DNA of 64,000 nt from a virus (IMGVR_UViG_3300027586_000007:17497-81496), one strand, 5' to 3'. Shown: positions 41,721-59,267, counted from the stretch's first letter. The notes: generated by a model from the letters alone, not told the origin. Numbers and translations: made by a program.

Positions 41721-41746
41721 CACCTGAGCATGTGTTTAAAAGGCTC
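41721..41746 (+). ncRNA. Candidate H-type pseudoknot RNA motif, copy 1
   Basis: CAC-CT-GAGC-AT-GTG-TTTAAAAG-GCTC; covaries with copy 2 at 59242. Confidence 0.55.
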
Positions 41747-41763
41747 ACTAACTAAGGAGAATT

Positions 41764-42531
41764 ATGATTATTCAGATTATGGGGCTACCAGGCTCGGGCA
41801 AGACAGAGCTTGCAAAAGCATTAAAAGAACGCATTAACGCTATACATCTTAACGCCGATGAAGTAAGAGCAACAGTTAACTCAGACCTTGCGTTTACCAT
41901 AGAGGACAGAATAGAGCACTCAAGACGAATGGGAGAAATGGCAAGATTAATTTCTAATCAGGGTGTTGCCCCAGTTGTAGTTGATTTTGTTTGTCCTACA
42001 AAAAGCACAAGAGATGCTTTTGGCAAACCAGACATTTTAATTTTTATGGATACAATTCAAGAAGGTAGATTTGAAGATACCAATAAAATGTTTGATCCAC
42101 CAAAGGAAACAGAGTCAGATATGGTTTTTACAGATCACCTCTTTAATGCAAATCAAAAAGCTGAATTAATAGCTAAACATTTTCATTTACACGATTGGTC
42201 AGCACCAACCACACTAATGCTTGGAAGATATCAGCCATGGCATGAAGGGCACCATGCTCTTTATCAAGAGGCTGGCAAAAGAACAAACCAAGTTCTTCTT
42301 GGAGTCAGAAATACATATAACACAGATGATAAGAATCCGCTTAAGTTTGATGAAGTAAAAGAATATATTGCAAAAGATGAATTTATGGCTGGCGCCTTGG
42401 TTTTGAGACTACCTAATATTACTAACATAGTTTATGGCAGAGATGTAGGATATAAGATTGAGCAAGTCTCGTTAGGAGCAGAAATTGAAGCTATCAGTGC
42501 TACGCAAAAACGTGAAGAAATGGGTCTCTAA
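41764..42531 (+). CDS. Adenylylsulfate-kinase-like P-loop kinase fused to an HxGH nucleotidyltransferase
   Basis: GLPGSGKT, ADEVR...DLAFTIEDRIEHSRR, DFVCP (CysC-like); GRYQPWHEGH (cytidylyltransferase/NMNAT-like). Confidence 0.8.
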   Translation: MIIQIMGLPGSGKTELAKALKERINAIHLNADEVRATVNSDLAFTIEDRIEHSRRMGEMARLISNQGVAPVVVDFVCPTKSTRDAFGKPDILIFMDTIQEGRFEDTNKMFDPPKETESDMVFTDHLFNANQKAELIAKHFHLHDWSAPTTLMLGRYQPWHEGHHALYQEAGKRTNQVLLGVRNTYNTDDKNPLKFDEVKEYIAKDEFMAGALVLRLPNITNIVYGRDVGYKIEQVSLGAEIEAISATQKREEMGL

Positions 42532-42567
42532 AATTTGGGACTTTGTAACAAAAGATAATAATATTGA

Positions 42568-42780
42568 GTGGCCATCATGAATGTAAGTAAACAAAGATCA
42601 GCATTAAAGGCTGTTACTTGGCGTATCATTGGCACAGCAGATACCTTTGTTATATCTTGGGTTATAACTAAAGAGCCTGTTACAGCAGGAGCAATAGCAA
42701 GCTTTGAGGTATTTACAAAAACTATACTTTATTATTTTCATGAACGTGGGTGGAATAAAGTTAAGTGGGGTAGAAAGTAA
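42568..42780 (+). CDS. DUF2061-like small membrane protein
   Basis: RSALKAVTWR...KTILYYFHERGW. Confidence 0.8.
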   Translation: MAIMNVSKQRSALKAVTWRIIGTADTFVISWVITKEPVTAGAIASFEVFTKTILYYFHERGWNKVKWGRK

Positions 42781-42965
42781 TGCCAATATATGAATACAAA
42801 TGCTCGTATGACGATGCACATCCGATAATGTCAATAAACAGATCTATTACAGATGCAGATCCAGGATATGCCTGTGTTGAATGTGAGTCCAGCATGACGA
42901 GACATTTCACGCCGTTTGGAATTCAATTTAAGGGCAATGGGTTTTATAAAACCGATAATAGGTAA
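42780..42965 (+). CDS. FmdB-family zinc-ribbon protein
   Basis: MPIYEYKC...CVEC...FKGNGFYKTD. Confidence 0.85.
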   Translation: MPIYEYKCSYDDAHPIMSINRSITDADPGYACVECESSMTRHFTPFGIQFKGNGFYKTDNR

Positions 42966-43553
42966 TTAAAATAGTTTGTTGTTTATTGCAAAGCACGGCA
43001 CAGTGTATTTGTCGTCATTAAATATTTGAGTAACTTCATGCTCATATTCTTCTGAGCCAGGGTGACAAAGCAAAGAATTCTGTTTTGGTTTCATTCTTAT
43101 ATTTTTATTAGGGTAGCAAACCTCACCGCCGTCGTAACTATCATTAATATAATAGTTTAAACCTAAAAATATTGCAGTGGTGTTAGAGTCTACGCCACCA
43201 GATTCATTAATAAATCCATAATCATCAGAATGTCTTCCGAATGATAGTTCGCTGTTGTTGTCAGATTCATTATATTTTTTAAATTTGGTGATAGACATTC
43301 TTTTACCAATGCTATGAATGTCGTTGTTACAAAGGTCTTCTAATTTAAAGGTAAGTTCTTCCCAGGCTAAACGATACGATTCTTTTAATTCCAGGCCGTA
43401 CATATTAAAGGCCCCTCTATTTAAAAAGAAATCTTCCTTATATTCAAATTTATTATCATATTCCTTACACATATCTAAAAAAGAATTAAATGAGGCGTCA
43501 GATAGAAAATTGTCTATATAAAATATTTGATCGTCTAGATATATTTTTTCCAT
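42966..43553 (-). CDS. 2OG-Fe(II) oxygenase #3
   Basis: HSD...YINDSYDGGE...HPG...HEV...KY; leaderless promoter. Confidence 0.82.
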   Translation of the reverse strand: MEKIYLDDQIFYIDNFLSDASFNSFLDMCKEYDNKFEYKEDFFLNRGAFNMYGLELKESYRLAWEELTFKLEDLCNNDIHSIGKRMSITKFKKYNESDNNSELSFGRHSDDYGFINESGGVDSNTTAIFLGLNYYINDSYDGGEVCYPNKNIRMKPKQNSLLCHPGSEEYEHEVTQIFNDDKYTVPCFAINNKLF

Positions 43554-43583
43554 ATACCTATTGTATCATGCTATAATAGAGGT
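43554..43583. promoter_or_regulatory. Back-to-back divergent leaderless promoters
   Basis: Minus strand TGATACAAT-N6-ATG; plus strand TGCTATAAT-N6-ATG; 30 bp between the two ATGs. Confidence 0.75.
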
Positions 43584-44231
43584 ATGTCAAATGAAAAAAA
43601 GGTATTAATAGTTGGTGGGACTTCCTGCATAGCAAAAGAAATAATAGAGGCCCTAGAGTCTAATCAATATAAGATAAATTTAATGACCTTTAGACAGCAA
43701 TGGAAAATTTATGGTGATTATACTTGGGCTTATTGTGATCTTGAAGAAGTAGATAGCGTAAATAATCTAATAGATTTAATAAAAAAAGATAAATATTCAA
43801 AGATGATTTTTTTACCAGGCAATTCTTTAGGTCCAGTAGTTGGTGAGCATTCCTATGAACAACTTGAGGCATTTTATAATGCGTTTGTTTTTAGGTATAA
43901 TTTTTTAATTAAAGAAGCCTCTAAGTGTTTAACAGAAGACGGACAAATTATTTCTATATCTTCTATAGCTGCTAATATAGCAATTAATGACGCACACTAT
44001 TCTGCAGTAAAGGCTGGCGTTCAGGCATTTGTAAAATCCCTATCGCTTAAGCTAAGGCCAAACCAATCTGCTTTTTCAATATCTCCAGGGTTAATATATA
44101 ACTCTACTACATTTAATAAACAAAAATATATTGGTGACATATCTGAGTTAGCAACTAAAGATCAGATAGCTAAAATCATAGCTAACGCTGACAAAAGTTA
44201 TAATGGTAAAGTCATAGAGATTGGTTACTAG
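43584..44231 (+). CDS. Short-chain dehydrogenase/reductase
   Basis: VLIVGGTSCIA Rossmann motif; ISSIA; YSAVK (YxxxK); ISPG. Confidence 0.85.
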   Translation: MSNEKKVLIVGGTSCIAKEIIEALESNQYKINLMTFRQQWKIYGDYTWAYCDLEEVDSVNNLIDLIKKDKYSKMIFLPGNSLGPVVGEHSYEQLEAFYNAFVFRYNFLIKEASKCLTEDGQIISISSIAANIAINDAHYSAVKAGVQAFVKSLSLKLRPNQSAFSISPGLIYNSTTFNKQKYIGDISELATKDQIAKIIANADKSYNGKVIEIGY

Positions 44232-44297
44232 TTTAAACTAACATTCTGCTATAATTACTAAGTAAGCAAAAATATTGCATTACTTAGGAGATCCTAA

Positions 44298-46418
44298 TTG
44301 ACTAGAAAGTTAAGAATATTTACAGCCTTCCTGCTCTCAGTAGGTTGGCTTTTTGCTGGTCCCTCCCAAGCTAATGCTGCAGACACACTAATAAACGGAT
44401 CCTTCTCGTCAACTGGTGGTGGATGGTCTGGGGCAAATATCACTGGCTCAGCAAACAATAATGCCTCCTGCGACAATGGTGGCCCAAGTATGGGCGCTTG
44501 GGATGACGATGCACTTGTTATGTCGTATGTTAACACGCCAGTTACTCAAGTAGTAACAATATCTCAACCATCTGCAGTTGTTTTTACAGTAAATGCTCGG
44601 AATAGATCAGATGTTCCTGGAGCCCAGTCTACAATAAGGATTCAAGATTCTAATCAAAATATTTCAACGGCAGGAAACTACTCAGTTGATGGTGTCAGTA
44701 AAACACTTACCGTTACTACCACCTCTGCAAATGAAAATGTAACAATAACAATAAGCGGAACAGACGGATTAGGCTGGGCTGGATGCTACGGAACTATATT
44801 TACTAATGCCTCTTTATCTGTGACACCAACAGTTGTTAAAACTATTGGAGCCCCAAGAAATTTAACCATATCTAGCAATGAAACATCAACCGTACTGTCC
44901 TGGCAAGCACCAGATACTGGTAACACACAGCCAGAAAGATATGCTATAAGTTTTAATTGCTCTGGGTGTAATGGCTGGGGAATTGCAACTGGAAATGTTG
45001 GCGGACCAAATTCTTTAAACACAACAATTACAATTGATCACTCTTTGTTAGACGGCCTTCGCCCTGCAGGAACCGTATGGTCATTCCATATTAGATCAGA
45101 TAACGACACGTTTGCTCTTTACTCTGCAAACTCAAATGTTGTTACTGGGTCTACATATGTAGCACCAACACCCACACCAACGCCTACACCAACCCCAACA
45201 CCAACGCCTACACCAACTCCTACACCAGAGCCTTCACCTACACCAACCCCAACACCAACGCCTACACCAACTCCTACACCAACGCCAGAGCCTAGCCCTA
45301 CACCCGCACCTACTCCTGTGCCAACACAAACGGCAGCACCAGAGCCAGTCACAGTAGTTCCTACTGGGCCAACTGCTGAAGAGATTGCAGCGCAAGTAGC
45401 AGCACAGTTATCTGCACAACAAGCGGAAGCAGCAAGAATACAAGCAGAAGCAGCAGCATTAATTGCACAACAGGCAGCAGCAGCACAGGCAGAAGCAAAT
45501 AGGCTTGCAGAATTAGCTGCAGCAAATGCAGAGGCAAATAGAATAGCAGCAGAACTTGCGGCTAAAGTTGCAGCAGAAGCAGCAGCAATGGCAGAAGAAG
45601 CGGCAAGAATACAGGCAGAAATAAATGCAAATGCCGAAGCTGCTCGTATAGCAGCAGAACTTGCAGCATTAGAGGCAGAAATTAAAGCAGCAGCACAGGC
45701 AGAAGCAGACCGTATTGCAGAGGAAGCAGCAGAGGCACAAGCAGAAGCAAATGCTAAAGCAGAAGCTGATAGAATTGAAGCAGAACAAAAGGCTATGGAA
45801 CAAGAAATAGCAAACGCTAAAGCAGAAAAGGAAGCGGCAATAGCAGAAGAAAAGGCGGAAATTGCAGAAGAGTTAGCGGCAATTAAAGAAGAAGAAGAAA
45901 AAGTTGTTGAAGAGATAAAGAAAGCCGTAGAGTCTGGAAAAGAATTAACTGAAGAGCAAAAGGATGTTGTAGTGGCAGCATTAATAGAAACATTGGCACC
46001 AGGAGAATCAATTTCAGTAGCACAAGTTGTAGCGGCTGGAGTTGAGCTTAAAGATTTGCCACCAGATACTCCAATTGAAGTTAGAACATCAGAGTCTGGC
46101 GAAGTCTTAATTATTACTGCTGAGGTGGCAGCAAATATTGAATTAGTTACAGATCCAGGAGCATTGGTGGAGGCAATATTTACAGATCCACAGGCAGCAC
46201 TTGCTGCTATTGGAAGTATAGGCGCTGACATGACTGATGAAGAAAGAAAAGAAGCAACTGAGATGGTTGTAGCAACAGTTGTAGCAACAGGTGCAGCATT
46301 AAATGCTGTAGGTGCCGCTACAGGAACCACTGGAGGGTCCACAGGACATAGTTCTGGAGGATCAGGTGGCGGAGGAGCCGTAGGCGATTCCAAGGGAATA
46401 AGGAGAAGAAGACCATGA
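44298..46418 (+). CDS. Secreted/surface protein: signal peptide, beta-sandwich + Fn3 domains, PT-repeat stalk, Ala/Glu coiled coil, hydrophobic C-terminus
   Basis: Read from the translation; (PT)n at about 45160-45330; EAARIQAE-type repeats; ends RRRRP. Confidence 0.8.
45161..45330 (+). repeat. Pro-Thr dipeptide repeat tract
   Basis: ccaaca/cctaca/ccaacc degenerate 6-nt repeats encoding APTPTPTP...PEPSPTP... Confidence 0.9.
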
Positions 46419-46594
46419 TAAAGAAAATAATCAAAGATATGATAGATCAACTTTGGACACTTCTAGGTATGTTTATTGCCTGGGTAGTCCTTGATGGTTC
46501 TGCAAAAACAATAGTGGGATATGCAATTGTTTGTACATTAATTGCATGGGGAGTTACATACCCAATTAGAAATAAAGAATGGGATGAAGAATAA
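46415..46594 (+). CDS. Small 2-TM membrane protein (59 aa)
   Basis: [14 protein letters not shown]...[15 protein letters not shown]; coupled to both neighbours; not in the ORF track. Confidence 0.7.
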
Positions 46595-46884
46595 TGGCAA
46601 AAGCATATATTGAAGAACCAACACATGTAGGCGGAGGTAAGATAGCAAGCATCAATAATATTTTAGCTAGAATTATTGCTGTATTTGCAGCCTCTGGATT
46701 ATCTGTAATTGGAGCGGGTGCAGTAGTAGGAATTGAAACCTATAAAGCAGTTATATTAGCAGGAACTCTTGGCGTTGCCACCGTAGTTGAAAGGCTTGCA
46801 CGAGGATTCCTAGATGATGGCAAATTGACCGTATCAGAAATTAACTCAGCATTCTTATCAGTAGATAAAAAAGCCAACAAATAA
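46594..46884 (+). CDS. Small membrane protein (2 TM; holin-like candidate)
   Basis: Two hydrophobic segments; charged C-terminus. Confidence 0.6.
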   Translation: MAKAYIEEPTHVGGGKIASINNILARIIAVFAASGLSVIGAGAVVGIETYKAVILAGTLGVATVVERLARGFLDDGKLTVSEINSAFLSVDKKANK

Positions 46885-46899
46885 TGCTATAATTATCTT

Positions 46900-47046
46900 A
46901 TGGATAAATACAGTATAAAACTAGAAGTTTTAGCCGAAGTAGAAGCTTTTTCAGAAGCAGATGCTAGGGAGTATATATCTGACATCTTCAATATTGATGA
47001 TGAAATTAAAAACGTTAAGGTAATTAAAGTCACTAAAAACAGTTGA
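46900..47046 (+). CDS. Hypothetical 48-aa protein
   Basis: Leaderless TGCTATAAT-N6-ATG. Confidence 0.6.
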   Translation: MDKYSIKLEVLAEVEAFSEADAREYISDIFNIDDEIKNVKVIKVTKNS

Positions 47047-47086
47047 CATGTCCATTTTGTCACGGTATAATAATACTAAGCACTAT

Positions 47087-47170
47087 GCCCGTATGGCGGA
47101 ATTGGCAGACGCAGCAGACTTAAAATTTGCCTCCAACCGTGGAGTATCGGTTCAAATCCGATTATGGGTA
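47087..47170 (+). tRNA. trnL: tRNA-Leu(TAA)
   Basis: Long variable arm CTCCA-ACCG-TGGAG; anticodon arm GCAGA-CTTAAAA-TTTGC; preceded by TTGACA-N17-TATAAT (47043-47071). Confidence 0.92.
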
Positions 47171-47186
47171 CTAGACAGGAAGTTCA

Positions 47187-47417
47187 TTGCTTAACTTAAC
47201 TGAACTAGGAGTAGATATCTTTATAAAAAGATCTAACTCTAAAAATGTTCAATCTTTCTGGAATAACTATTCTTTAGTTATATGGAAGAAAAATAATTCT
47301 GGTTTTACAAACAAAAAAGGACTATTCAGAAATGGATGGGGAGTTTCAGAAAAGTTTGACATTAGCAACGAAGGGGTCTGGGAGCTTCCAGTAAAGTATG
47401 TCAAAATTTTTAAATAA
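47187..47417 (+). CDS. Hypothetical protein
   Basis: ORF overlapping the start of the whiB-like gene. Confidence 0.55.
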   Translation: MLNLTELGVDIFIKRSNSKNVQSFWNNYSLVIWKKNNSGFTNKKGLFRNGWGVSEKFDISNEGVWELPVKYVKIFK

Positions 47418-47709
47418 CCTAGGAATAGATAAAGAAAATATGCGTTGGCAAGACCTTGCCTTATGCTTGGGAATGGAAACCAACCTGTTCTTTGACTCAT
47501 ATGAGTCTGATGTCAATGTGGCTAAAAGTATTGATCAGGCATGTATGTCGTGTCCAGTAATAGCTATGTGCTATAAATATGGTACAGAATCAGAAAATTA
47601 TGGTGTCTGGGGTGGTGTATACTTATCTAATGGGGTAAGAGATAAGTCAAAAAACCTACACAAAACCAAAGAAGTAGAAAAGATTTTAAAAAAGAAACAC
47701 GGGGGTTAA
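47398..47709 (+). CDS. whiB: WhiB-family transcription factor
   Basis: WQDLALC...FF...CMSCPVIAMC...YGVWGG (four Cys + GVWGG). Confidence 0.9.
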   Translation: MSKFLNNLGIDKENMRWQDLALCLGMETNLFFDSYESDVNVAKSIDQACMSCPVIAMCYKYGTESENYGVWGGVYLSNGVRDKSKNLHKTKEVEKILKKKHGG

Positions 47710-47710
47710 T

Positions 47711-48418
47711 ATGTTTTCTGACAAGCCAGGATGTATAAAGTTAGCAGATGAGATATATTTATTTAAGGGATATATCCCTAGAGACATAGTAGATAAATTT
47801 GTTGAACTCCTTGAATCAATGGACCCTAAAGAATTTTGGGAAGATGAAGATTTTATTGAATGGTATTATGACAAGATGAGCCCATCAATACCAGAATTTT
47901 TTGATATATGGGAAAAGGTTTCTGAATTAATCTATCCAGAGTATATAATAAATCCTCAAGATAAGGTTATAGCATCAAGACCAGGACAAGAAGGAATGTT
48001 TGTACATTGTGACAGTCCAGGCATGGGAAACAAAGACATGTTAACACAAGAAGATGGATACGGAACATGCAGCCTTATATCTTATGGACTGGTTGCATAC
48101 CTAGGTAATTTTGAAGGCGGAGAAGTTTTTTATCCAGCTTTTGATATCAACGGCAATCTAATGGAAATATATGATCCATCACCAGAAGGCAAGCTTTCTT
48201 ATAAGCCAGAGCCTGGTGATGTAATAATACATCACGCTGAAGCACCTTATTACCATGGAACAAAACCTGTCCTGTCTGGTACTCGCTACGCATACTCTTT
48301 ATTTGCAACAGAAATTAGTATGTCTCCTGGAACATTCTTACACTACAAAACTCCAGAGTATATTGAAACAATGAGAGATAAATCAAAAGAAGCACTGGAC
48401 AAGTGGTTAAATGGCTAA
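47711..48418 (+). CDS. 2OG-Fe(II) oxygenase #4
   Basis: HCD...YLGNFEGGE...GDVIIH...YHG...RYAY. Confidence 0.85.
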   Translation: MFSDKPGCIKLADEIYLFKGYIPRDIVDKFVELLESMDPKEFWEDEDFIEWYYDKMSPSIPEFFDIWEKVSELIYPEYIINPQDKVIASRPGQEGMFVHCDSPGMGNKDMLTQEDGYGTCSLISYGLVAYLGNFEGGEVFYPAFDINGNLMEIYDPSPEGKLSYKPEPGDVIIHHAEAPYYHGTKPVLSGTRYAYSLFATEISMSPGTFLHYKTPEYIETMRDKSKEALDKWLNG

Positions 48419-48734
48419 CTTTATAAACAAAGATAAAGAGCATTTTAAGTATGGAATAAATCAATGGACTGGTGAAGCAAACAAGCCAGTTTTTTATACA
48501 AAAGAAATGGCAAGAAAAGTGAGAGAATTAAAAAGCCCTTCACACGACTTACAGATGGATATTATAAAGTATCCTGAATTTTTAGCAATAAGATTATATG
48601 AAAACAATTTTTCGCAGTACGATGGTAGTATGAGAATGAGAGTTATAGATTATATCGAGATGGTTAAAAGGATCCTAGAATCATATGGGGTACGAGTCGA
48701 GTTGGAGGGGAAACCAGGTGGAAGAACAAGATGA
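48411..48734 (+). CDS. Hypothetical protein
   Basis: Coupled ORF. Confidence 0.6.
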   Translation: MANFINKDKEHFKYGINQWTGEANKPVFYTKEMARKVRELKSPSHDLQMDIIKYPEFLAIRLYENNFSQYDGSMRMRVIDYIEMVKRILESYGVRVELEGKPGGRTR

Positions 48735-48912
48735 TGTTGCATCAATTGTTTATATTATTCCTGAACGAAGATATGGGGTAATAGTATCACAGGGGGCATA
48801 TATGTCCTCCATAAGGTACAATGATGGTTTTGAAGATGTAGTAGAGCTTTTTGATACAGGTGATTTTATTGTTTCAAATGAAATCAGTATTATGAATATA
48901 GAGGAGAATTAA
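48718..48912 (+). CDS. Hypothetical protein (SH3-like beta barrel?)
   Basis: GTG start after GGAGG; VYIIPERRYGVIV pattern. Confidence 0.45.
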   Translation: MEEQDDVASIVYIIPERRYGVIVSQGAYMSSIRYNDGFEDVVELFDTGDFIVSNEISIMNIEEN

Positions 48913-49352: not shown

Positions 49353-49588
49353 TGGAAAAAGTACTGTGTTATTCTTGTAATAAGAGTAAAGCAAATTTAA
49401 ACCTAAAAAGATCCAGCCTGCTTGCAATAAATTTATTGATGTGCGAAACATGCATAACTAATAAATTTGAGCCTAGATGGACAATAATTTTGTGTGGCAG
49501 ACAACACGGACATGAAATAGTAAAAGATTACATATCTAAGAAAAGATATGTTGGAGAAGACATAAAAGCCTCAGAACTCTTAATTTAA
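49352..49588 (+). CDS. Zinc-binding hypothetical protein
   Basis: CYSC...CETC. Confidence 0.6.
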   Translation: MEKVLCYSCNKSKANLNLKRSSLLAINLLMCETCITNKFEPRWTIILCGRQHGHEIVKDYISKKRYVGEDIKASELLI

Positions 49589-49617
49589 GTCTTTTTTAGG
49601 GTATAATTGTATATATA

Positions 49618-52254: not shown

Positions 52255-52453
52255 ATTAACAGTAATGGATGAAATTGTTGGGGAAGTTGCTGAGAGCCTA
52301 TATAAAAAATGGGTCTCAGCAATGCCTGATGATGAAAAAAATCAACAAGCCTTTAGCGCAATGTCAAAGAATGCACACGAAACAACCCTATTTGTAATAC
52401 AAGACTTTATGAATAGATTTAATGCAGCAGCAGAGGAACTCAAAGACAAATGA
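52247..52453 (+). CDS. Hypothetical protein
   Basis: The likely start is ATG 52247. Confidence 0.55.
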   Translation: MAELTVMDEIVGEVAESLYKKWVSAMPDDEKNQQAFSAMSKNAHETTLFVIQDFMNRFNAAAEELKDK

Positions 52454-52752
52454 TAGTGACAGACGAAAGTTTTGATAGAGTACTTGAATCTCACAATTTG
52501 GTTCTTATCGACTTTTGGGCTGAATGGTGTGGACCCTGTAAAAAAGTATCTCCTATCCTAGATGAGATAGCAAATGAGTGCGGGCTCTGGATTGGAAAGT
52601 TAAATGTTGATGAGAATCCTATTAAATCAGATGAATTTAGCATAAAGACTATACCAACTATGGTATTATTCAGTTATGGTAAACCAGTCAAGACAATAAC
52701 AGGGGCAAAGCCAAAGCACGTGTTACTTGAGGAGTTATCAAAATGGATTTAG
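52450..52752 (+). CDS. trxA: Thioredoxin
   Basis: DFWAEWCGPCK, IPT (cis-Pro). Confidence 0.93.
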   Translation: MIVTDESFDRVLESHNLVLIDFWAEWCGPCKKVSPILDEIANECGLWIGKLNVDENPIKSDEFSIKTIPTMVLFSYGKPVKTITGAKPKHVLLEELSKWI

Positions 52753-52943
52753 AGTTTGATTCGGAAGATTCTAGCCATTTAGAGTTTGAAATATGGCTTA
52801 AAAATGGCTATGATCGTGGATGGGTATCAGATGTATTTTGCGATACGCATGAAGGCCCACCAATGTCAGATGAAGATATGGAAGAATGGGATGAGGGCGG
52901 AGACCCTTGCTCATTTCACGTAAAATTACATGAATTACATTAG
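52743..52943 (+). CDS. Acidic hypothetical protein
   Basis: CDTHEG...GGDPC. Confidence 0.55.
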   Translation: MDLEFDSEDSSHLEFEIWLKNGYDRGWVSDVFCDTHEGPPMSDEDMEEWDEGGDPCSFHVKLHELH

Positions 52944-53037
52944 CAACATTTGACACAGAAAAACGTCTTACATAGTGTGAACATGTCACAAAATTCTGCA
53001 TTAAATAATGTAGAGGAAATAAGGAGAAATAAATAGA

Positions 53038-54060
53038 ATGAACTCATTCAAGAAAGTATCGCTAATCATCGCTGCAGCCCTGACTAGCACAATGCTTGTA
53101 TCGCCAGCAGCTAACGCTAACGCTGGAACTGTCACCCTAACGGTGGCGGGAACTGCAGCAACAGGTGGAACAGTAGTAACAACTCCTGTATCACTACCAG
53201 TACCAGCAGATAACAGTGTAGATGCAGCAGATGCATTGAAGATTGCCGTAACAGGCGTAGACACTGGAACAGCAGTAACAGCAGTTGCAGTAAATGCAAC
53301 ACTTGTTCCTGCCCTAGCAGCAACTGGTGCAGCAGTAACAGCATCATCTGGAACCTCAACGCTATCAATTGCAACAGGAACTGGAACATCAGCAGACTTT
53401 TATGTATATACTAAAAGTACAGCAGTAGGATCAGTATCGATTACTCGTGCTGGAACTACAACAGTTTATTATGTACAAGGTACCGCAGGTGCTTTGAACT
53501 CAATTACACTAACCGCTCCTGCATCAGCAGCAGCAGGTACATCACAGGTACTCAAGGTATCTGGATTTGACGTGTTCGGTAATGCAAAGGGTGGAGCCAC
53601 AATTAATACTTTGGTTTCAAGCTCTGGAGCAGCATTGGCAACAGCGCTGACAACTGACACAGCAGTAGCAACACTTGGAACAAAAGAGCAGACAGTAACA
53701 GTCCCTGCAACTGGTTCAATCACAGTAGTTGCATACGCAACAGTAGCAACAGCCGTAACAGGTTTAGCAGCACCAGTCGGTTCTGTAAGCGCTACAATTG
53801 TAGTACGTGATATTGCAGCAGAACTTACAGCAAAGAATGCAGAACTTGCAGCAGCAAACCAAGCACTTGCAACAGCCAATGCAGCACTAGCAGCAGAGAA
53901 GGCAGGACGTGCAGCCGATAAAGCAGCAGCAGATTCTGCAACTGCAACAGCAAAGGCAACAGCAGATCTTGCTAAGGCTACATACAAGGCGGAATACAAT
54001 GCACTTGCAACTAAGTGGAACAAGAAGTTCCCTAAGCTAAAGGTAGCACTAAAGAAGTAA
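53038..54060 (+). CDS. Secreted Ala/Thr-rich surface protein with Ig-like repeats and C-terminal coiled coil
   Basis: Signal peptide (MNSFKKVSLIIAAAL...ANA); strong RBS; strongly biased codons; dedicated terminator. Confidence 0.75.
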   Translation: MNSFKKVSLIIAAALTSTMLVSPAANANAGTVTLTVAGTAATGGTVVTTPVSLPVPADNSVDAADALKIAVTGVDTGTAVTAVAVNATLVPALAATGAAVTASSGTSTLSIATGTGTSADFYVYTKSTAVGSVSITRAGTTTVYYVQGTAGALNSITLTAPASAAAGTSQVLKVSGFDVFGNAKGGATINTLVSSSGAALATALTTDTAVATLGTKEQTVTVPATGSITVVAYATVATAVTGLAAPVGSVSATIVVRDIAAELTAKNAELAAANQALATANAALAAEKAGRAADKAAADSATATAKATADLAKATYKAEYNALATKWNKKFPKLKVALKK

Positions 54061-54072
54061 ATAACTTCAATT

Positions 54073-54106
54073 AAAGGGGCAGGGCTCAGGCCTTGCCCCT
54101 TTATTA
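54073..54106 (+). terminator. Rho-independent terminator
   Basis: AAAGGGGCAGGGC-TCAG-GCCTTGCCCCTTT. Confidence 0.85.
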
Positions 54107-54127
54107 TTTAAATGATAGAATGGAAAT

Positions 54128-54925
54128 ATGAGATTTCATTGGATGGAAAGAGGCGGAGATACCAGTATTGGTCATCTTAAAACTCTTTCTGGCATACTAG
54201 ATGAATTTGGATATGAGTCCGTACTACTGGTATATCATTCAAAAATAGATGACAATTGGATTAAAGCAGCCAGAGCACTTGACACAAATCATAAATTTAA
54301 ATATATGCCAGCCATTAGAACATATGCTATAAGCCCAGAATACTGTGCAATGATATGCAAAGCCTTCTACAGCATATCACCAGATAGACTAATGTTAAAT
54401 ATAGTGTCTGGTGATCTGCATAAAGATGAAACATCAGTTCAGGATTTAATATGGCTAAATAGCGATTTAGATACTCCAGAAAAGAGATTGAAGTACACTG
54501 ACGAATGGATGTCAAAATTCTTTGAGCTATCAGAAAATACAGTATTTGAGGTAGTAATGGGCGGTCATTCAGATGCAACAAAGATTATGGCAGAAAAATA
54601 TAATGCTACTCATTTATCTATGCTAAACATGCATAAGCAGTCATACAATAAGCCTAATTTTATAAAAAATAAAAAACAAATGCTATCATTAAGTGTAATC
54701 ATAAATGACTCAGAAAAAGAAATAAAAGAAATGCTATCTAAAAGCTTGGGGTCGGATCAATGGACTATATATGGTGATAAAGATAGCGTTAAAATACAAC
54801 TAAATAATTTAACAACTTTGGGTGCAACCGATCTTTTGATTAGCCCTCATCCAGAAGACAACAATGTATCATCAATACATTACTTAATCAAAGAAATGAT
54901 AGGGGAACAAAATGGAATCAACTAA
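54128..54925 (+). CDS. Luciferase-like (LLM) flavin-dependent monooxygenase, SsuD-like
   Basis: GYESVLL, KYMPAIRT...PEYCAMI...RLMLNIVSG, MGGHS. Confidence 0.78.
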   Translation: MRFHWMERGGDTSIGHLKTLSGILDEFGYESVLLVYHSKIDDNWIKAARALDTNHKFKYMPAIRTYAISPEYCAMICKAFYSISPDRLMLNIVSGDLHKDETSVQDLIWLNSDLDTPEKRLKYTDEWMSKFFELSENTVFEVVMGGHSDATKIMAEKYNATHLSMLNMHKQSYNKPNFIKNKKQMLSLSVIINDSEKEIKEMLSKSLGSDQWTIYGDKDSVKIQLNNLTTLGATDLLISPHPEDNNVSSIHYLIKEMIGEQNGIN

Positions 54926-55112
54926 AAGAACATTACTAAAGACACTCAGCTGGGAAACTTTTCACTTAGTAGGAGTTGCTGGAGTAATTTATTTATTTAC
55001 TGGCGAATGGGAGTATGCTAGCTTGGGAGCTCTTATTTATATTGGCTGGGAAGCACTGGGATACTTTTTACACGAAAGAGTATGGGCTAAGTTTGGGAAA
55101 AAGATTAAATAA
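54912..55112 (+). CDS. DUF2061-like small membrane protein (second copy)
   Basis: KRTLLKTLSWE...GYFLHERVW. Confidence 0.75.
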   Translation: MESTKRTLLKTLSWETFHLVGVAGVIYLFTGEWEYASLGALIYIGWEALGYFLHERVWAKFGKKIK

Positions 55113-55649
55113 GTGGAAACCTATAAGGATAAAATTTTTGTAATAAGAGATTTTATTACTAAAGAGCAAAGCCAAGAATTAGTGTCTGTCTTTAGCAATA
55201 ACATAACCTCTACTCCAGATTCTGATCTGATTAAAAGCGGGTTTTCTATTTCTTTTGACCAAAAAGAATATTTCGATGTAATGAACAAAGATTCTATTGA
55301 GTCTAATATATTAAAAAAGATATCGGGTAAAGTCTCAGATCATTATGGAATAGATATGGAAATAAAATCAATGTTTCACAGTATTATGGAAAAAGGTGCA
55401 TCAAATCCACCGCACTGGGATAACCAAGAGGACTCACAAGAAGATGATATTTCCGCCCTACTTTATTTAAATAACAATTTCAGCGGAGGCTTACTTAGGT
55501 TCATTAATCATAATATTGTTTTGATACCAGAGCCAGGGATGCTTGTATTTTTTAAAGGCGAAAAAGATTTATTGCACAGCGTAGAAGAAGTAACTGGGGG
55601 ATCCCGCCAAGCTTTGGTAGGATTTTGTTGGCCATCCAAAGGCAAATAA
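55113..55649 (+). CDS. 2OG-Fe(II) oxygenase #5
   Basis: HWD...LYLNNNFSGG...PEPGMLVFF...LHSV...RQAL. Confidence 0.85.
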   Translation: METYKDKIFVIRDFITKEQSQELVSVFSNNITSTPDSDLIKSGFSISFDQKEYFDVMNKDSIESNILKKISGKVSDHYGIDMEIKSMFHSIMEKGASNPPHWDNQEDSQEDDISALLYLNNNFSGGLLRFINHNIVLIPEPGMLVFFKGEKDLLHSVEEVTGGSRQALVGFCWPSKGK

Positions 55650-55662
55650 AAGGAGCAATAAA

Positions 55663-55824
55663 ATGGAAGAAAATTTTATAAAAGTAATAGATGACTCAAA
55701 ACAGGCACCCATACATATTCTTATGGCAAAATATGGCCTAAAGTCTTTTCCAAAATTGTACCTAGAAGCACATCCAGAAATTGAAGATTCTAGTTCTAAT
55801 CAACCAGATGCTATAATAGACTAA
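55663..55824 (+). CDS. Hypothetical 53-aa protein
   Basis: AAGGAG RBS; read by eye. Confidence 0.55.
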   Translation: MEENFIKVIDDSKQAPIHILMAKYGLKSFPKLYLEAHPEIEDSSSNQPDAIID

Positions 55825-55873
55825 TGGATGGATTCTAGACCCATCTAAATAAACAACCTATAGGAGAAATAAA

Positions 55874-56029
55874 ATGTCAGACGGATTAAATTTAGACGGT
55901 TTTGCAACAGTAAAGCCATCAGCAACAAACAATATTGATGGGCACTATTCAGATAACACTGGATCAGCATTCCCTGCAACAGACAAGTCTACACAAGACG
56001 GCGCTGGAGTAGGAAACAACGGTAAGTAA
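55874..56029 (+). CDS. 51-aa low-complexity peptide
   Basis: AGGAG RBS; MSDGLNLDGFATVKPSATNNIDGHYSDNTGSAFPATDKSTQDGAGVGNNGK. Confidence 0.65.
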   Translation: MSDGLNLDGFATVKPSATNNIDGHYSDNTGSAFPATDKSTQDGAGVGNNGK

Positions 56030-56031
56030 TA

Positions 56032-56211
56032 ATGGGCCTCTTTGATAAAGAAGAAGTAGTTGCACCGACAATGGAAGCAGCAGTAGCAGAAGCAGTTAAG
56101 CCTGTACAGGCTGTAGTGCCAGCAGCGCCAGTTAATTCTGGTTCAGCATGCACTAGAGACACAAGAGGCGACGCCCCTTGTGCAGTAAAGAATTGTGAGA
56201 ACTGCAACTAA
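56032..56211 (+). CDS. 59-aa peptide with Cys-rich C-terminus
   Basis: ...SACTRDTRGDAPCAVKNCENCN; coupled to the next ORF by TAATG. Confidence 0.6.
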   Translation: MGLFDKEEVVAPTMEAAVAEAVKPVQAVVPAAPVNSGSACTRDTRGDAPCAVKNCENCN

Positions 56212-56360
56212 TGTGTTACGAATGCGGATGCGAAACAGTAGGAAGCACTAAGGGCGTAACCCCAGTTACAATCACAGATGCTTCAAGAGATGGTGATTCA
56301 GGTTTAACATTAAGCATGTCATCTACTCCAGAGCAGACAAGACAATTCATTAATGAGTAG
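56211..56360 (+). CDS. 49-aa peptide with N-terminal CxxCxC
   Basis: MCYECGCETVG... Confidence 0.6.
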   Translation: MCYECGCETVGSTKGVTPVTITDASRDGDSGLTLSMSSTPEQTRQFINE

Positions 56361-56553
56361 TTTTCAAAAAGAAGACGGTACAGGAACAACTCCACCACCA
56401 AATGGTGCAGCAGCAGGTGCCGTTACTAGTAATTCAGCAACACGCAAGCAGCCACGTCAAGGCCTCAAGATAGACATAAATAGACATGGCATACGCCGTG
56501 AGTTGAATACAAATCCAAGGCCTCCAAAGAAAACTGGCCGCAAGAAGATATAA
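56353..56553 (+). CDS. Basic, probably disordered 66-aa protein
   Basis: ORF track; coupled on both sides. Confidence 0.6.
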   Translation: MSSFQKEDGTGTTPPPNGAAAGAVTSNSATRKQPRQGLKIDINRHGIRRELNTNPRPPKKTGRKKI

Positions 56554-56642
56554 TGTGTAAAAGTTGTGGGGCATGCTCTAAGGAACATGCCCCTACAATT
56601 GATGATGCAATAGATGTTGTTTTAGATTCAGTAATAATTTAA
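56553..56642 (+). CDS. 29-aa peptide with CxxCxxC..H
   Basis: TAATG-coupled; MCKSCGACSKEHAPTIDDAIDVVLDSVII. Confidence 0.5.
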   Translation: MCKSCGACSKEHAPTIDDAIDVVLDSVII

Positions 56643-56661
56643 TTTTAATAGGCCTGGAGTT

Positions 56662-56880
56662 ATGGAAAAATTTAGAAAGCTTTTGGATAACGCATATACA
56701 TTCCTACCTAAAATGTATCAGGGAGCCGAAGTCATTGAATACGATGAAGCAACAGATCTAACAGTTCATACTAAAGCTCCTGGGAAATGGTTATTAATTG
56801 ATCTAGAAACTGGTCAAGAATACATAGGCAGCAAAGAGCCAAATAAATATGGCAAATGGATGAGATTAAAAGACAAGTAG
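56662..56880 (+). CDS. Hypothetical protein
   Basis: GGAG RBS. Confidence 0.6.
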   Translation: MEKFRKLLDNAYTFLPKMYQGAEVIEYDEATDLTVHTKAPGKWLLIDLETGQEYIGSKEPNKYGKWMRLKDK

Positions 56881-56923
56881 CCCTTGACTTTATTTAAAGA
56901 AAATACTATACTATTATTAACTG

Positions 56924-56996
56924 TGCCTCATAGCTCAGTTGGTAGAGCACCGCACTGTTAATGCGGGTGTCCCTGGATCGAGGCCAGGTGGGGCAG
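56924..56996 (+). tRNA. trnN: tRNA-Asn(GTT)
   Basis: Acceptor TGCCTCA/TGGGGCA; anticodon arm CCGCA-CTGTTAA-TGCGG; T arm CCTGG-ATCGAGG-CCAGG; promoter TTGACT-N17-TATACT upstream. Confidence 0.88.
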
Positions 56997-57032
56997 CAGA
57001 CCAATTAGCATTAAACAAACAAAGGAAAATAA

Positions 57033-59111
57033 ATGACAGAAGCAAGATGTCCAGTGACTGGGCATTCAACAAGCACAGAAGTAAAATCCAATAAGGATTG
57101 GTTTCCTAATCAATTAGATTTATCTGTATTGAGAAAAAATTCAGAAAAATCTAACCCAATGTCAAAAGACTTTGATTATGCGGAAGAATTTGCAAGATTA
57201 GATATTGATGGAATTAAAGAAGATATTAATGATCTTCTAACCACATCGCAAGACTGGTGGCCAGCAGACTATGGAAACTATGGCCCATTTTTTATTAGAA
57301 TGGCATGGCACTCAGCAGGTACATACAGGATTTCAGACGGACGTGGTGGCGCTGGCGAAGGCTTGCATAGATTTGCACCGCAAAATTCATGGCCAGATAA
57401 CGGCAACCTAGATAAAGCTCGCAGACTTCTATGGCCAATTAAGCAGAAGTACGGCAAAAGAATCTCTTGGGCTGACCTAATGATTCTTGCTGGAAATGTT
57501 TCTCTTGAAAACATGGGATTTAAAACATTTGGTTTTGCTGGTGGTCGTGAAGATGTCTGGGAATCAGACGATACATATTGGGGTATAGAAAAAGAATGGT
57601 TAGCTAATGAGCGTTACTCTGGTGATCGTGAACTAGAAAAACCACTTGCAGCGGTTCAAATGGGATTAATATATGTAAATCCTGAAGGACCAGACGGTAA
57701 CCCAGATCCAATTCTTTCTGCAAGAGATATCCGTGAAACATTTGCACGTATGGCAATGAATGACGAAGAAACAGTTGCATTAATTGCAGGTGGACACGCA
57801 TTCGGTAAAGCACACGGCGCAGGAGACAAGTCTCACGTTGGGCCAGAGCCAGAAGCTGCACCAACTGAAGAGCTTGGCCTTGGATGGAAGAATTCATTTG
57901 GTAAAGGTAATGCAGAAGATACGATAACAAGCGGTATCGAAGGTGCATGGACTCCAACACCAACCAAGTGGGATAATTCTTATCTTGAATTATTGTTTAC
58001 ATACGATTGGAAACAAACAAAGAGTCCTGCTGGTGCAACACAATGGATTCCAGTTGATGAATCGGCTAATAGTTTAGTCCCAGACGCACATCTATCTGAA
58101 AAATTTCATGCTCCAATGATGACTACAGCAGATCTAGCATTAAAATTTGATCCAGAGTATAACAAGATATCGATGAGATTTCTTAAAGACTTTGAATATT
58201 TTTCAGATGTGTTTGCTCGTGCATGGTTTAAGCTAACTCACAGGGATATGGGGCCTATATCAAGGTATTTAGGTAAAGATGTGCCATCAGAAATACTAAT
58301 TTGGCAAGATCCAATTCCAGCAAATAATCAAAAGCCTTTGTCAAATAGAGAAATAAAAAAGATTAAAAAGCAGATACTTGATTCAGAAGTAAGTACTGCA
58401 GATTTTGTTACAACTGCTTGGGCTTCTGCTTCTACATTTAGGAAAACAGATAAAAGAGGTGGCGCAAATGGTGCCAGAATTAGATTACAGCCACAAATTT
58501 CTTGGGATGTAAATGATACTAATGGAATTAGTAAAGTACTAGCAGTATTAGAATCTATAAAGACAGAGATGTCTATGGCTGATTTAATTGTTCTTGCCTC
58601 ATGTGCTGCTATTGAAAAGGCTGCATTTCAATGTGGAGTTAGCATTACAGTTCCTTTTAGACAGGGACGTTCAGATGCTACTCAAGTTGATACTGATGTA
58701 GATTCATTTTCAGTGCTTGAGCCAAAATTTGATGGGTTCCGTAATTATACTCATTTGAGCATAACTGCACCAGAAGAAGTTTTATTGGTAGAGAAGGCTA
58801 ATCTACTAGGCTTAACCCCAGTAGAATTAGTATTACTACTGTCTGGAATAAGAATGCTTAGCAAAGACATAGAGGGAGTCTATAGATTAGACAACACTTA
58901 TCTTTCAGAATTACTATCGTATAATAATGCTGAAGAAGCAAAAGGTATTCCAAATGTAGATCTCATTATTGCATCCAATTCAGAGCTTCGTGCAATTGCT
59001 GAAGTTTATGCTTCTGATGATGCTAAAGAAAAGTTTATAACAGACTTTGCTAATGCCTGGTCAAAGGTAATGAATCTAGATAGATTTGATATAAAGAAAG
59101 GAAAAGAATGA
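57033..59111 (+). CDS. katG: Catalase-peroxidase
   Basis: [10 protein letters not shown] (distal R/W/H), [11 protein letters not shown] (adduct Tyr), FARMAMND (adduct Met), [10 protein letters not shown] (proximal His). Confidence 0.96.
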
Positions 59112-59236
59112 GGACAGCTTTATTTTATCTACTACACTCTTCAGCAATTGCTGGGCTAATGGTAGGATCATATTTTTATGGTTTTAAACAAGCATCTCAG
59201 GATGTAAGACAGAAGTCTTTCTTTAAAAAGAAGTAA
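59108..59236 (+). CDS. 42-aa single-TM peptide
   Basis: ATGA-coupled to katG; hydrophobic N-terminus and basic tail. Confidence 0.5.
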
Positions 59237-59241
59237 ACCGT

Positions 59242-59267
59242 GTCCTAGGCATGACCATAAACTGCCT
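59242..59267 (+). ncRNA. Candidate H-type pseudoknot RNA motif, copy 2
   Basis: GTC-CT-AGGC-AT-GAC-CATAAACT-GCCT. Confidence 0.55.

Follow-up and report, generated by a model that had tools for sequence, protein, structure and literature searches.

The window analysed here is a 64,000-nucleotide stretch of viral DNA that carries, on its plus strand, two copies of a 26-nucleotide repeat (41721-41746 and 59242-59267), which align without gaps and are identical at 14 of 26 positions. Both copies are intergenic. The genes and features surrounding them are as follows (all on the plus strand; S1 and S2 denote the two stems of the proposed pseudoknot).

41255..41671, +, hsp20 gene, upstream cistron of copy 1 (PF00011, E 1.3e-16), stop codon TAA
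41676..41716, +, hairpin directly 5' of copy 1 (8-bp stem, 25-nt loop region, by folding)
41720..41747, +, knot copy 1 (pairing check; highest score in the genome scan; family covariation)
41720-41723 with 41732-41735, +, copy 1 S1 (G-U, C-G, A-U, C-G)
41725-41729 with 41743-41747, +, copy 1 S2 (5 bp)
41724, 41730-41731 and 41736-41742, +, copy 1 unpaired parts (L1, C; junction, AU; A-rich loop)
41764..42531, +, P-loop kinase gene with an APS-kinase-like N-terminus, downstream cistron of copy 1 (PF01583, E 8e-15)
57033..59111, +, catalase-peroxidase (katG-like) gene, first of the unit ending at copy 2 (PF00141, E 6.6e-65)
59108..59236, +, 42-aa ORF, ATGA overlap with the katG stop (reading frame)
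59242..59267, +, knot copy 2 (pairing check; genome scan)
59242-59244 with 59253-59255, +, copy 2 S1 (3 bp)
59247-59251 with 59263-59267, +, copy 2 S2 (5 bp, including A10-U22)
59276..59304, +, sigma-70-like promoter match (TTGACT, 17 nt, TG-GATAAT; 10/12 positions; a consensus match only)
59311..59781, +, HAD/PNKP-type phosphatase gene downstream of copy 2 (PF25109, E 7e-18)

Copy 1 is separated from the hsp20 stop codon by 49 nt, a gap occupied by the 41676-41716 hairpin, and ends 17 nt before the ATG of the P-loop kinase gene, whose AAGGAG ribosome-binding site (RBS) is situated 5-10 nt past the knot region. Copy 2 begins 5 nt after the TAA (59234-59236) of the 42-aa ORF, for which a Pfam search returned no match; an in-frame TAG lies three codons beyond that stop, and the promoter-like site starts 8 nt past the copy, before the next gene. 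Neither copy is accompanied by a terminator-like site or, as judged by folding, by a second hairpin (hp2) downstream. An earlier note on this DNA had described intergenic copies lying ahead of the next RBS or promoter and a hairpin preceding copy 1, in agreement with these assignments.

Seven stem pairs (1-14, 2-13 and 3-12 in S1; 6-26, 7-25, 8-24 and 9-23 in S2) are Watson-Crick in both copies, and both partners differ between the copies at 1-14, 2-13, 6-26 and 7-25, giving four compensatory changes. The unpaired CU, AU and UAAA are the same in each. The repeat, its pairs and its invariant loops thus hold on re-reading of the window as first claimed, and S2 proves longer, with 5-27 as an extra pair in copy 1 and 10-22 in copy 2. 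S1 gains a fourth pair, between positions 0 and 15, in copy 1 only, where it is G-U. A scan of the full 81.5-kb record recovers these two copies only. Two matches to the invariant-base pattern, with two mismatches allowed, also arose in 5 of 100 shuffles, and the nested folding energy of the copies is ordinary (z of about 0 to −1). The two copies by themselves are therefore unconvincing, and it is the family evidence that is decisive.

A family of H-type pseudoknots and its placement

A search of IMG/VR with a pattern consisting only of the 14 bases common to both copies yielded at least 120 loci. All four free pairs are Watson-Crick in 82 of the 125 matches listed (chance, ∼0.5%). Across the 91 distinct sequences among these listed matches, the cells of the H-type pseudoknot are paired in 91% of instances, a value reached by none of 500 shuffles, as opposed to ≤41% in slid controls; S2 considered separately is 89.5% paired in the 91 aligned rows, again against ≤41%. 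Within S2 of the listed matches, pairs 6-26 and 7-25 covary (G-C, A-U, G-U, C-G, U-A), 8-24 and 9-23 do not vary, and 70% of rows have A-U at 10-22. The C3-G12 closing pair, which was preset by the search pattern, occurs in 91/91 aligned rows of listed matches and in both window copies, and the remaining S1 pairs covary freely in those rows. In the listed family, S1 comprises four pairs and S2 frequently five. The eight-nucleotide loop has the consensus C-U-R-R-G-C-A-U, and S1 is followed in the listed matches by N-U-A-A-A (the UAAA being preset by the pattern) and then by C-U (76%) or A-G (21%); copy 2 reads A-U-A-A-A-C-U and copy 1 U-U-A-A-A-A-G at this point.

The 26-base repeats are genuine copies of an H-type RNA pseudoknot common to many phages and mobile elements. 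The structural part of the earlier proposal, a functional pseudoknot with further covarying homologs to be sought in phage metagenomes, is thus supported by plentiful covariation, seen in over 90 independent sequences. Rfam 15 at the gathering threshold identified four tRNAs in the window and nothing else, found no relevant match around either copy at E values up to 10, and gave no match at the motif in 18 bacterial loci.

Placement of the knot follows the transcription unit. Among the matches listed, the neighbouring ORF is on the strand of the knot in 78 of 83 cases upstream and 58 of 63 downstream, and only 4 of 116 sites fall inside ORFs. The gap from the upstream stop codon peaks sharply at 6 nt (20 of 99 listed), with a floor of 5 nt, and the stops preceding the listed knots are TAA (38), TAG (10) and TGA (1), compared with a TGA background of 27%. 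The other placement is behind a hairpin: where a knot does not directly follow a stop codon, the 45 nt ahead of it show more structure than shuffled sequences, and in Firmicutes phages it lies directly 3' of a terminator-like hairpin. The distance to the downstream feature is broad (13-45 nt), often placing the listed knots 20-25 nt before a start codon. In approximately ten listed cases, a tRNA starts 2-11 nt 3' of the knot, and in none does a tRNA directly precede it. In a Bacillus prophage, an S. aureus Phietavirus and Streptococcus phages, the knot fills the single large gap ahead of the genes for scaffold and major capsid protein. Some copies, copy 2 among them, sit just 5' of terminators or promoters, others at the 5' ends of units or 20-100 nt from any stop, and one locus (L012) presents a cassette-like array in which a small ORF and knot occur three times with ∼315-nt spacing.

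The 30 nt past the knot are unstructured and G-poor (mean MFE −1.95, vs −1.88 for shuffles), and a hairpin resembling hp2 (≥4 bp, starting ≤4 nt past the knot) is present at 37% of the 110 sites listed, vs 36% of shuffles. Family-wide, −10 boxes are not enriched upstream; inspection of the listed upstream sequences revealed no slippery heptamers, and neither an intrinsic terminator nor sigma-70 hexamers were found within the element.

An orthologous site (L045) contains a 26-mer identical to copy 1, preceded by a hairpin with compensatory stem changes and a loop without a single change (100% conserved), against ∼15% divergence in hsp20 itself. Homology to the window breaks off right after the knot, so the P-loop kinase neighbour is not conserved. 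In 19 of 20 related loci bearing hsp20, the knot follows the hsp20 stop by 8-97 nt. The link to stress-related units suggested by the earlier note is only partly general. In related phages the knot recurs behind hsp20, but it also follows many unrelated genes: the neighbours (hsp20, katG, kinases, zinc ribbons, capsid genes and tRNAs) share no common pathway.

Resemblance to coremin and other compact folds

The knot closely resembles coremin (xrRNA-C), known from beny-, cucumo- and many other eukaryotic RNA viruses (PMC6546385, PMC10321173, PMC10520033), and on the sequence comparison may be its phage counterpart. Coremin opens with a hairpin, hp1, of 3-5 bp that is closed by C-G, with U-A tolerated and G-C not, and a loop, lp1, of the form YGAD (4 nt) or YGNNAD (6 nt), natural candidates whose loops span 5-8 nt being listed without a consensus (PMC6546385). 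There follows a spacer, U13 U14 A15 A16 A17 C18 U19 A20 C21, of which A16-A20 are essential, and in the Watson-Crick pseudoknot form, xrRNA-WCC, S2 joins positions 6-8 with 18-20; resistance to Xrn1 additionally requires a second hairpin, hp2, of at least 4 bp (PMC6546385, PMC10321173, PMC10520033). Reported activities comprise stalling of Xrn1, a block to scanning ribosomes and −1 frameshifting, the last also in an E. coli screen, and for frameshift stimulation the Watson-Crick form needs no hp2 (PMC6546385, PMC10321173, PMC10520033).

The commonest 3-4 bp hairpin of the phage knot, CGUC/GACG, is identical to that of coremin, with the same C-G loop-closing pair, a pyrimidine as first loop base, and A then U/A/G as the last two. 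The stem is followed by a segment comparable to the coremin spacer (UUAAACU, with UAAA preset by the search pattern and C-U present in 76% of listed rows), and loop bases pair with the segment past UAAA to form S2. For both systems prediction places adenines in the minor groove of S1, and both occupy UTR or intergenic sites, at times in several copies. The two differ in that the phage loop has 8 nt rather than YGAD or YGNNAD, with U instead of G at its second position; that the phage S2 comprises 5-6 bp after UAAAC(U), whereas that of coremin has 3 bp within the spacer; and that the equivalents of A20-C21 are replaced by the S2 strand. The phage knot also lacks hp2 above chance, is anchored 6 nt past stop codons, and resides in bacterial hosts devoid of Xrn1. 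The longer S2 might, we speculate, make up for the missing hp2. Canonical coremin is itself present in IMG/VR gut DNA phages in the same pre-scaffold position, and it too has no Rfam match, from which it follows that Rfam holds no coremin model. The earlier statement that the element belongs to no known family is accordingly correct for Rfam; it falls short in that coremin is a published relative close in sequence and architecture.

Other compact folds are less similar. Pseudoknots of the luteovirid −1 frameshifting (BWYV, PEMV-1) and MuLV read-through classes are H-type elements of ∼26-28 nt with a C in a short L1, a one-base junction and an A-rich minor-groove loop, set 5-8 nt away from the codon in the A site. 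Compared with these from established knowledge, the phage knot has the same size class and topology, but it lacks a slippery site, follows a strong stop (TAA) with no extended frame after it, and in many instances is located far from ORF ends or beside tRNAs. The preQ1-I aptamer, located ahead of an RBS, is likewise a minimal H-type pseudoknot that ends in an A-rich 3' tail; the phage knot differs in its conserved bases and in having no Rfam match, no sequestration of the Shine-Dalgarno (SD) sequence and no link to queuosine genes. Flaviviral and tombusvirid xrRNAs are also proposed to act as enzyme-independent mechanical blocks to 5'-to-3' exonucleases, although their ring-forming folds are much larger (45-70 nt) and without sequence similarity to the knot.

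A candidate roadblock on phage messages

The close resemblance to coremin points to the knot as an enzyme-independent, mechanical roadblock on polycistronic phage mRNA, directed against RNase J-type decay, ribosomes or both, a reading that we favour tentatively and at slightly less than an even chance. Blocking of an exonuclease, among the options offered in the earlier note, would match what the closest characterised relative does. From the observed fold, spread, placement rules and coremin likeness, we infer the activity, its direction and the enzyme involved. Each copy in the message would fold with an S1 of 3-4 bp and an S2 of 5-6 bp, an L1 of one base (C) and a junction of one base (U), the A-rich loop (UAAA) probably lying in the S1 minor groove. 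It would be positioned as near the upstream stop as a terminating ribosome permits, or behind a 3' hairpin, and would thereby stay folded. The folded knot would then halt processive 5'-to-3' decay begun upstream, by RNase J in these hosts, such that the downstream segment (the next gene, a tRNA, or the scaffold and capsid genes) would outlive the upstream one; stray ribosomes may equally be stopped. In vitro, bacterial RNase J1 is blocked by a flaviviral xrRNA (PMC5760640). Of five motif-bearing host genomes checked, four carry an RNase J gene; none was found in the fifth, a MAG.

Several observations count against a roadblock: the phage knot is devoid of the hp2 that coremin requires for Xrn1 resistance, its nested part folds at just −4 to −5 kcal/mol, and its tightest spacing rule concerns the upstream stop, not the downstream start. 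Where copies lie just before terminators or promoters, as copy 2 does, there is nothing downstream to shield.

The stop-anchored spacing and the L045 homology that ends after the knot would also suit a 3'-end cap, in which the knot belongs to the upstream cistron and stabilises its message by blocking 3'-to-5' exonucleases once the RNA is cut behind it, either in the G-poor, unstructured spacer or by RNase P at an adjacent tRNA. We consider this unlikely, if the best of the alternatives. It accommodates the sharp upstream gap beside a broad downstream distance, the retention of the knot by hsp20 while downstream genes vary, the promoter-like site after copy 2, and the tRNAs so close that the 3' tail left by RNase P would be very short. 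However, characterised relatives block 5'-to-3' enzymes and ribosomes arriving from the 5' side, the terminator-like hairpin in Firmicutes phages would already cap the upstream RNA, and a generic 3' hairpin would suffice without conserved loop bases.

Ribosome footprint and helicase geometry are established, and on this basis a gap of 5-6 nt sets S1 at the mRNA entry of a ribosome with the stop codon in its A site. The knot could thus act as a translational insulator that stops read-through or sliding ribosomes and uncouples translation of neighbouring cistrons, which we judge marginally less probable than a cap. The near absence of the leaky stop TGA (1 of 49 in the matches listed) fits such a role, as do the block to scanning ribosomes by coremin and the E. 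coli frameshifting of its form without hp2. Insulation leaves unexplained the copies before tRNAs, those at 5' ends of units, and those that follow a hairpin or terminator at 20-100 nt from the nearest stop (49 nt for copy 1), and rare TAA read-through would make its benefit small.

An RNA processing signal, be it a tiny self-cleaving ribozyme or an endoribonuclease site that cuts polycistronic RNA at gene borders, appears improbable. Conservation of unpaired bases across many phyla suggests a self-contained activity or a universal partner, tRNA genes often adjoin the knot, and hammerhead and twister ribozymes in phages occupy the same gene-boundary position. Yet 26-28 nt is far below the size of any known natural self-cleaving class, Rfam ribozyme families give no match, and the conserved bases are those that coremin needs for a non-catalytic roadblock.

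A ligand-sensing mini-riboswitch of the preQ1-I size class, which the earlier note had put forward as an aptamer, is a poor fit and very improbable: the compact fold, invariant loop bases, A-rich tail and frequent location 20-25 nt before a start codon are as expected, but the neighbours, which include tRNAs and capsid genes, are too diverse to share a pathway, no terminator or SD-sequestering platform exists, Rfam offers no match, and the stop-codon spacing would have no rationale. Comparably remote is a DNA-level element at module borders (a recombination junction, protein-binding site or promoter). The homology break after the knot, the L012 array and the junctions with variable gene order speak for it; against it, two interleaved covarying helices keep their complementarity, which is not how duplex DNA sites evolve, the strand bias follows transcription, the gap to stop codons is of ribosomal scale, and −10 boxes are not enriched upstream. 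Least likely is a recoding stimulator that promotes read-through of the stop or frameshifting where the upstream gene ends, despite the 6-nt modal spacer typical of such pseudoknots and the −1 frameshifting driven by coremin, because inspection disclosed no slippery heptamers, 48 of the 49 stops listed are TAA or TAG (mostly TAA), read-through at copy 2 adds just three codons, and copy 1 is 49 nt from its stop.

Returning to the roadblock, we suggest more guardedly still, by analogy with coremin, that minimal "unpassable" knots of a coremin superfamily may be common to eukaryotic RNA viruses and to the phages and bacterial mobile elements of many phyla, and that phages may use them to set the lifetimes of mRNA segments by stopping RNase J. 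If so, they would be the first class of prokaryotic RNA to resist exoribonucleases or ribosomes, and scaffold and capsid mRNA, for example, would outlast portal and terminase mRNA within one long message.

A covarying pseudoknot and its relatives

The earlier note described two 26-mers as copies of one pseudoknot with compensatory base changes. Both are found on the + strand at the coordinates listed here, with the sequences exactly as quoted:

41721-41746, + strand: copy 1, starting 49 nt after the hsp20 TAA, the gap being filled by a hairpin (41676-41716)
59242-59267, + strand: copy 2, starting 5 nt after the TAA of a 42-codon ORF

Every one of the seven proposed pairs is Watson-Crick in each copy, and pairs 1-14, 2-13, 6-26 and 7-25 differ on both sides as described, with overall identity of only 14 of 26 bases (54%). 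The intergenic position holds for both copies. The hairpin before copy 1 does fold, with an 8-bp stem, and 17 nt separate the end of this copy from the ATG of the next gene, which is P-loop kinase-like. Copy 2 indeed stands behind the katG unit and a small ORF and is followed by a promoter-like site (TTGACT-17-GATAAT) and then by a HAD/PNKP phosphatase gene. The 42-codon ORF (59108-59236) overlaps the katG-like stop (ATGA) and is the cistron actually preceding copy 2; its product combines a hydrophobic core with a Lys-rich tail and has no Pfam match.

On their own, the two copies could still be due to chance; the pattern derived from them reached two matches in 5 of 100 shuffles when two mismatches were allowed. 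Their nested folding energy is ordinary, so that thermodynamics alone argues neither for nor against the pseudoknot. A PWM-plus-pairing scan of the whole 81.5-kb IMG/VR virus record that holds the window recovered only the two reported copies (scores 27.8 and 24.1; shuffled maximum 18.8), with no further copy above the shuffled null. No close named relatives of the window region were found.

IMG/VR was then scanned with a pattern that fixed only the 14 bases common to both copies and left all covarying positions free. Among the matches listed outside this genome, all four free pairs are Watson-Crick in 82 of 125 and are kept in 95 of 125 if G-U is allowed, against a chance expectation of about 0.5-2%. 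Sequence conservation drops abruptly at both motif ends in the IMG/VR matches listed. An alignment of 91 distinct sequences among these matches is 91% paired as a pseudoknot versus 26-41% with the 3' partners slid; compensatory changes fill 159 of its cells, and the observed value was reached in 0 of 500 shuffles. The scan returned no fewer than 120 loci, and among them are further homologues with covariation, on which the earlier note had staked its proposal.

The same alignment reveals a fourth pair in the first stem (S1), position 0 with 15, in six pair types, and extensions of the second stem (S2), usually by A10-U22 and often by U5-A27. Pairing and extensions together define the anatomy: an S1 of 3-4 bp, a first loop (L1) of C or sometimes CU, an S2 of 5-6 bp, a single U as junction and a loop of six bases, N-U-A-A-A-C. 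Variants with 6-10-nt loops occur in related contigs (144 matches vs 15 in reversed controls). The finding is real: this is a conserved, transcribed, strand-specific pseudoknot.

One scan locus, L045, is colinear with the window across hsp20, hairpin and pseudoknot, and the homology stops one base past the pseudoknot. The stem of its hairpin (hairpin at 841-885, - strand) carries compensatory changes relative to window 41676-41716, while the hairpin loop and the pseudoknot are 100% conserved. Because the hsp20 coding sequence has diverged by about 15%, the identical hairpin loop is under its own constraint; this loop may represent another functional RNA element or a binding site. The association with a stress-related unit is only partly general, since many unrelated genes also precede the pseudoknot, but that with hsp20 recurs in related phages: among the matches listed, the pseudoknot lies 8-97 nt behind the stop of an hsp20 homologue (40-90% identity) in 19 of the 20 loci encoding one, and the gene downstream varies (zinc ribbon, SNase-like, other). 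In this phage group hsp20 is accompanied by a gene for an SNase-like nuclease (window 40760-41671; locus L029, 2018-2928); in some relatives the SNase gene sits directly 3' of the pseudoknot instead, and gene order is thus shuffled at the pseudoknot.

Placement on the message and host range

Among the matches listed, 78 of 83 upstream and 58 of 63 downstream ORFs share the strand of the pseudoknot, which falls inside an ORF at only 4 of 116 sites. In the matches listed, motif position 1 lies no closer than 5 nt to the end of the upstream stop, and the gap has a sharp mode of 6 nt, found at 20 of 99 sites with differing spacers and genes. The footprint geometry of the ribosome is established, including the position of the mRNA entrance when a stop codon occupies the A site. 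A 6-nt gap puts the first S1 pair at this entrance and is the nearest position to the stop at which the pseudoknot is not unwound. The stops within 14 nt of the pseudoknot (n = 49; loci L003-L122 of the matches listed) are TAA 38 times, TAG 10 times and TGA once. TGA makes up 27% among long ORFs of the same loci (binomial p ~1e-5, the sites not all being independent), and TAA is used at 78% versus a background of 53%. The pseudoknot is thus placed in keeping with the ribosome footprint and away from TGA, a leaky stop.

Where the pseudoknot is not directly behind a stop, the upstream 45 nt have more structure than shuffles (-8.4 vs -5.9 kcal/mol, matches listed), as exemplified by copy 1 with its hairpin. 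For the matches listed, the 30 nt that follow lack structure and are poor in G, and the next start codon follows after 13-45 nt (mode 20-25 nt). A tRNA gene begins 2-11 nt 3' of the pseudoknot in about 10 loci, and none is found directly 5' of it, again among the matches listed. Locus L012 (2440-3100) holds three copies at a spacing of about 315 nt, each 6-9 nt behind the stop of a small ORF of about 85-150 codons, in a cassette-like array of gene plus pseudoknot.

In GTDB genomes the same pattern yields mostly chance matches, with about 30 of 121 being true members. These include Saccharibacteria and Patescibacteria mobile elements with the order DUF7249, pseudoknot, DUF3768, as well as Bacillus, Clostridium, Streptococcus and other Firmicutes, Corynebacterium, one Prevotella MAG and the MAGs of a small-ORF family described below. 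Between pseudoknot and DUF3768 gene, the Saccharibacteria elements have about 200 nt of conserved non-coding sequence (L162, 4873-5113, and its equivalent in L126) that may be another RNA. Beta- and gamma-proteobacteria account for 0-1 of 29 true genome matches vs about 13 of 77 chance matches, a weak trend that is not relied on; these groups are not known to encode RNase J.

In a Bacillus prophage the pseudoknot lies directly behind a terminator-like hairpin, with a Mu-F-like head-morphogenesis gene on one side and the genes for scaffold and major capsid on the other. Streptococcus phages, Javan308 and MissE2 among them, also carry it in the pre-scaffold/capsid slot, as does S. aureus Phietavirus (93 matching records), where in OM439674 the pseudoknot fills the one large gap in this stretch of the late operon. 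The element recurs shortly before tRNAs and before the late genes in highest demand.

A recoding element fits these data poorly. The three in-frame stop-like triplets within the motif (positions 5-7, 11-13 and 17-19) show no consistent frame relation to upstream ORFs, except in one bacterial small-ORF family. There, a conserved 22-25-codon ORF, in the stretch from about 75 nt upstream into the motif, ends inside the pseudoknot (L177, L201, L215, L218 and L139, from Desulfobacterales, Deltaproteobacteria, Peptococcaceae, Acidobacteria and Omnitrophota MAGs). It has its own SD and promoter-like site, the consensus ...R..AHCKEGC...SWA-stop with synonymous third-base changes, Trp at motif positions 5-7 and a stop at 11-13 or 17-19, and is followed by a strong terminator. 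A ribosome on this ORF must unwind the pseudoknot, and this may represent a stalling or regulatory leader.

Relationship to coremin

Rfam 15 gave no match at either copy, at gathering or permissive thresholds (E up to 10), nor at the motif in 18 bacterial loci. Canonical coremin, the xrRNA-C motif of eukaryotic RNA viruses, also finds no match in Rfam, which holds no coremin model, so this absence is uninformative on novelty relative to coremin. A full-text literature search with the motif letters returned unrelated primers only; no literature joining coremin or xrRNAs with phages was found, nor any on exonuclease-resistant RNA that covers bacteria or phages. That the earlier note could assign the motif to no known family thus stands for Rfam 15 but not beyond it, given the likeness to coremin in sequence and architecture.

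Read from described mutants, BNYVV coremin consists of C1-G2-U3-C4, a CGAA loop, G9-A10-C11-G12 and the spacer U13 U14 A15 A16 A17 C18 U19 A20 C21, behind which lies another hairpin (hp2); A16-A20 are essential, and the structure of coremin was still unsolved in the papers cited (PMC6546385, PMC10321173, PMC10520033). The closing pair is obligatorily Y-R and the loop YGAD or YGNNAD (PMC6546385). In Watson-Crick coremin, loop bases 6-8 pair with 18-20 to form a true pseudoknot that stalls Xrn1 and promotes -1 frameshifting, including in an E. coli colony screen, and frameshifting persists without hp2; coremin also blocks scanning ribosomes (PMC6546385, PMC10321173, PMC10520033).

The commonest phage version has the whole stem of the first coremin hairpin with its closing pair, the first loop pyrimidine, the loop-terminal A-U and, at the place of the coremin spacer, U-U-A-A-A-C-U, in which the scan pattern fixed UAAA and after which the S2 strand replaces the A20-C21 equivalents. 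It departs from coremin in its 8-nt loop, in a longer S2 that follows directly on this U-U-A-A-A-C-U, and in lacking hp2; hp2-like hairpins lie downstream at 37% of sites among the matches listed vs 36% in shuffles. Since neither the loop consensus nor the hp2 requirement of coremin holds when tested on it, the element is no strict coremin member; the most fitting description is a new variant of the coremin type in bacterial viruses. Judged by sequence and architecture, it is shown to be close kin of an RNA for which experiments demonstrate arrest of an exonuclease and of ribosomes.

A scan for the exact BNYVV-type core itself gave matches at no fewer than 119 IMG/VR loci, with the three free S1 pairs all kept in 94 of 129 matches listed. 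Many of these are short contigs that resemble RNA-virus contigs and carry hp2, while gut phage contigs of 20-60 kb make up others. In the latter (L266), coremin lies behind a terminator-like hairpin, between minor-head and scaffold plus major-head genes, the slot of the window-type pseudoknot in Firmicutes phages. Two repeats of about 25 nt, each starting ACGGGAGACACC and ending AAAACTGAAA, follow it before the scaffold gene (L266, 7727-7800), and this leader recurs in dozens of IMG/VR contigs among the matches listed.

A candidate roadblock

By analogy with coremin, we infer that the pseudoknot would act as a mechanical roadblock, and we favor a block to 5'-to-3' decay: degradation would halt at the pseudoknot and the RNA downstream would be shielded. 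In the hairpin-then-pseudoknot layout, which resembles a module, the hairpin would cap the upstream fragment and the pseudoknot the downstream one. This direction is preferred because coremin and other xrRNAs work in it, because a flaviviral xrRNA stops bacterial RNase J1 (PMC5760640), and because RNase J is encoded in 4 of the 5 motif-bearing hosts tested.

Two other readings are serious, namely that the pseudoknot caps the 3' end of the upstream gene or that it acts as a ribosome insulator. Each draws on its tight coupling to the upstream stop, on the break in homology right past it and on the promoter-like site that copy 2 precedes. A processing site or ribozyme is a less probable reading, and a riboswitch fits poorly, as does a DNA site, since covariation argues against recognition of duplex DNA. 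A promoter was rejected, with no -10 enrichment upstream of the family sites.

The strongly covarying phage alignment now fixes the pseudoknot topology, and function is directly testable because cultured Staphylococcus, Streptococcus and Bacillus phages carry the element. If it is a roadblock, bacteria and their phages would gain a mechanism that until now has been described for eukaryotic RNA viruses only, in which a protein-free element of 26-28 nt would set the stop point of mRNA decay or of a ribosome. It would offer a tiny portable stabilizer or insulator for synthetic operons, would make the plant-virus coremin part of a far larger, ancient pool of elements, and would explain how one long phage operon transcript yields very different protein amounts.
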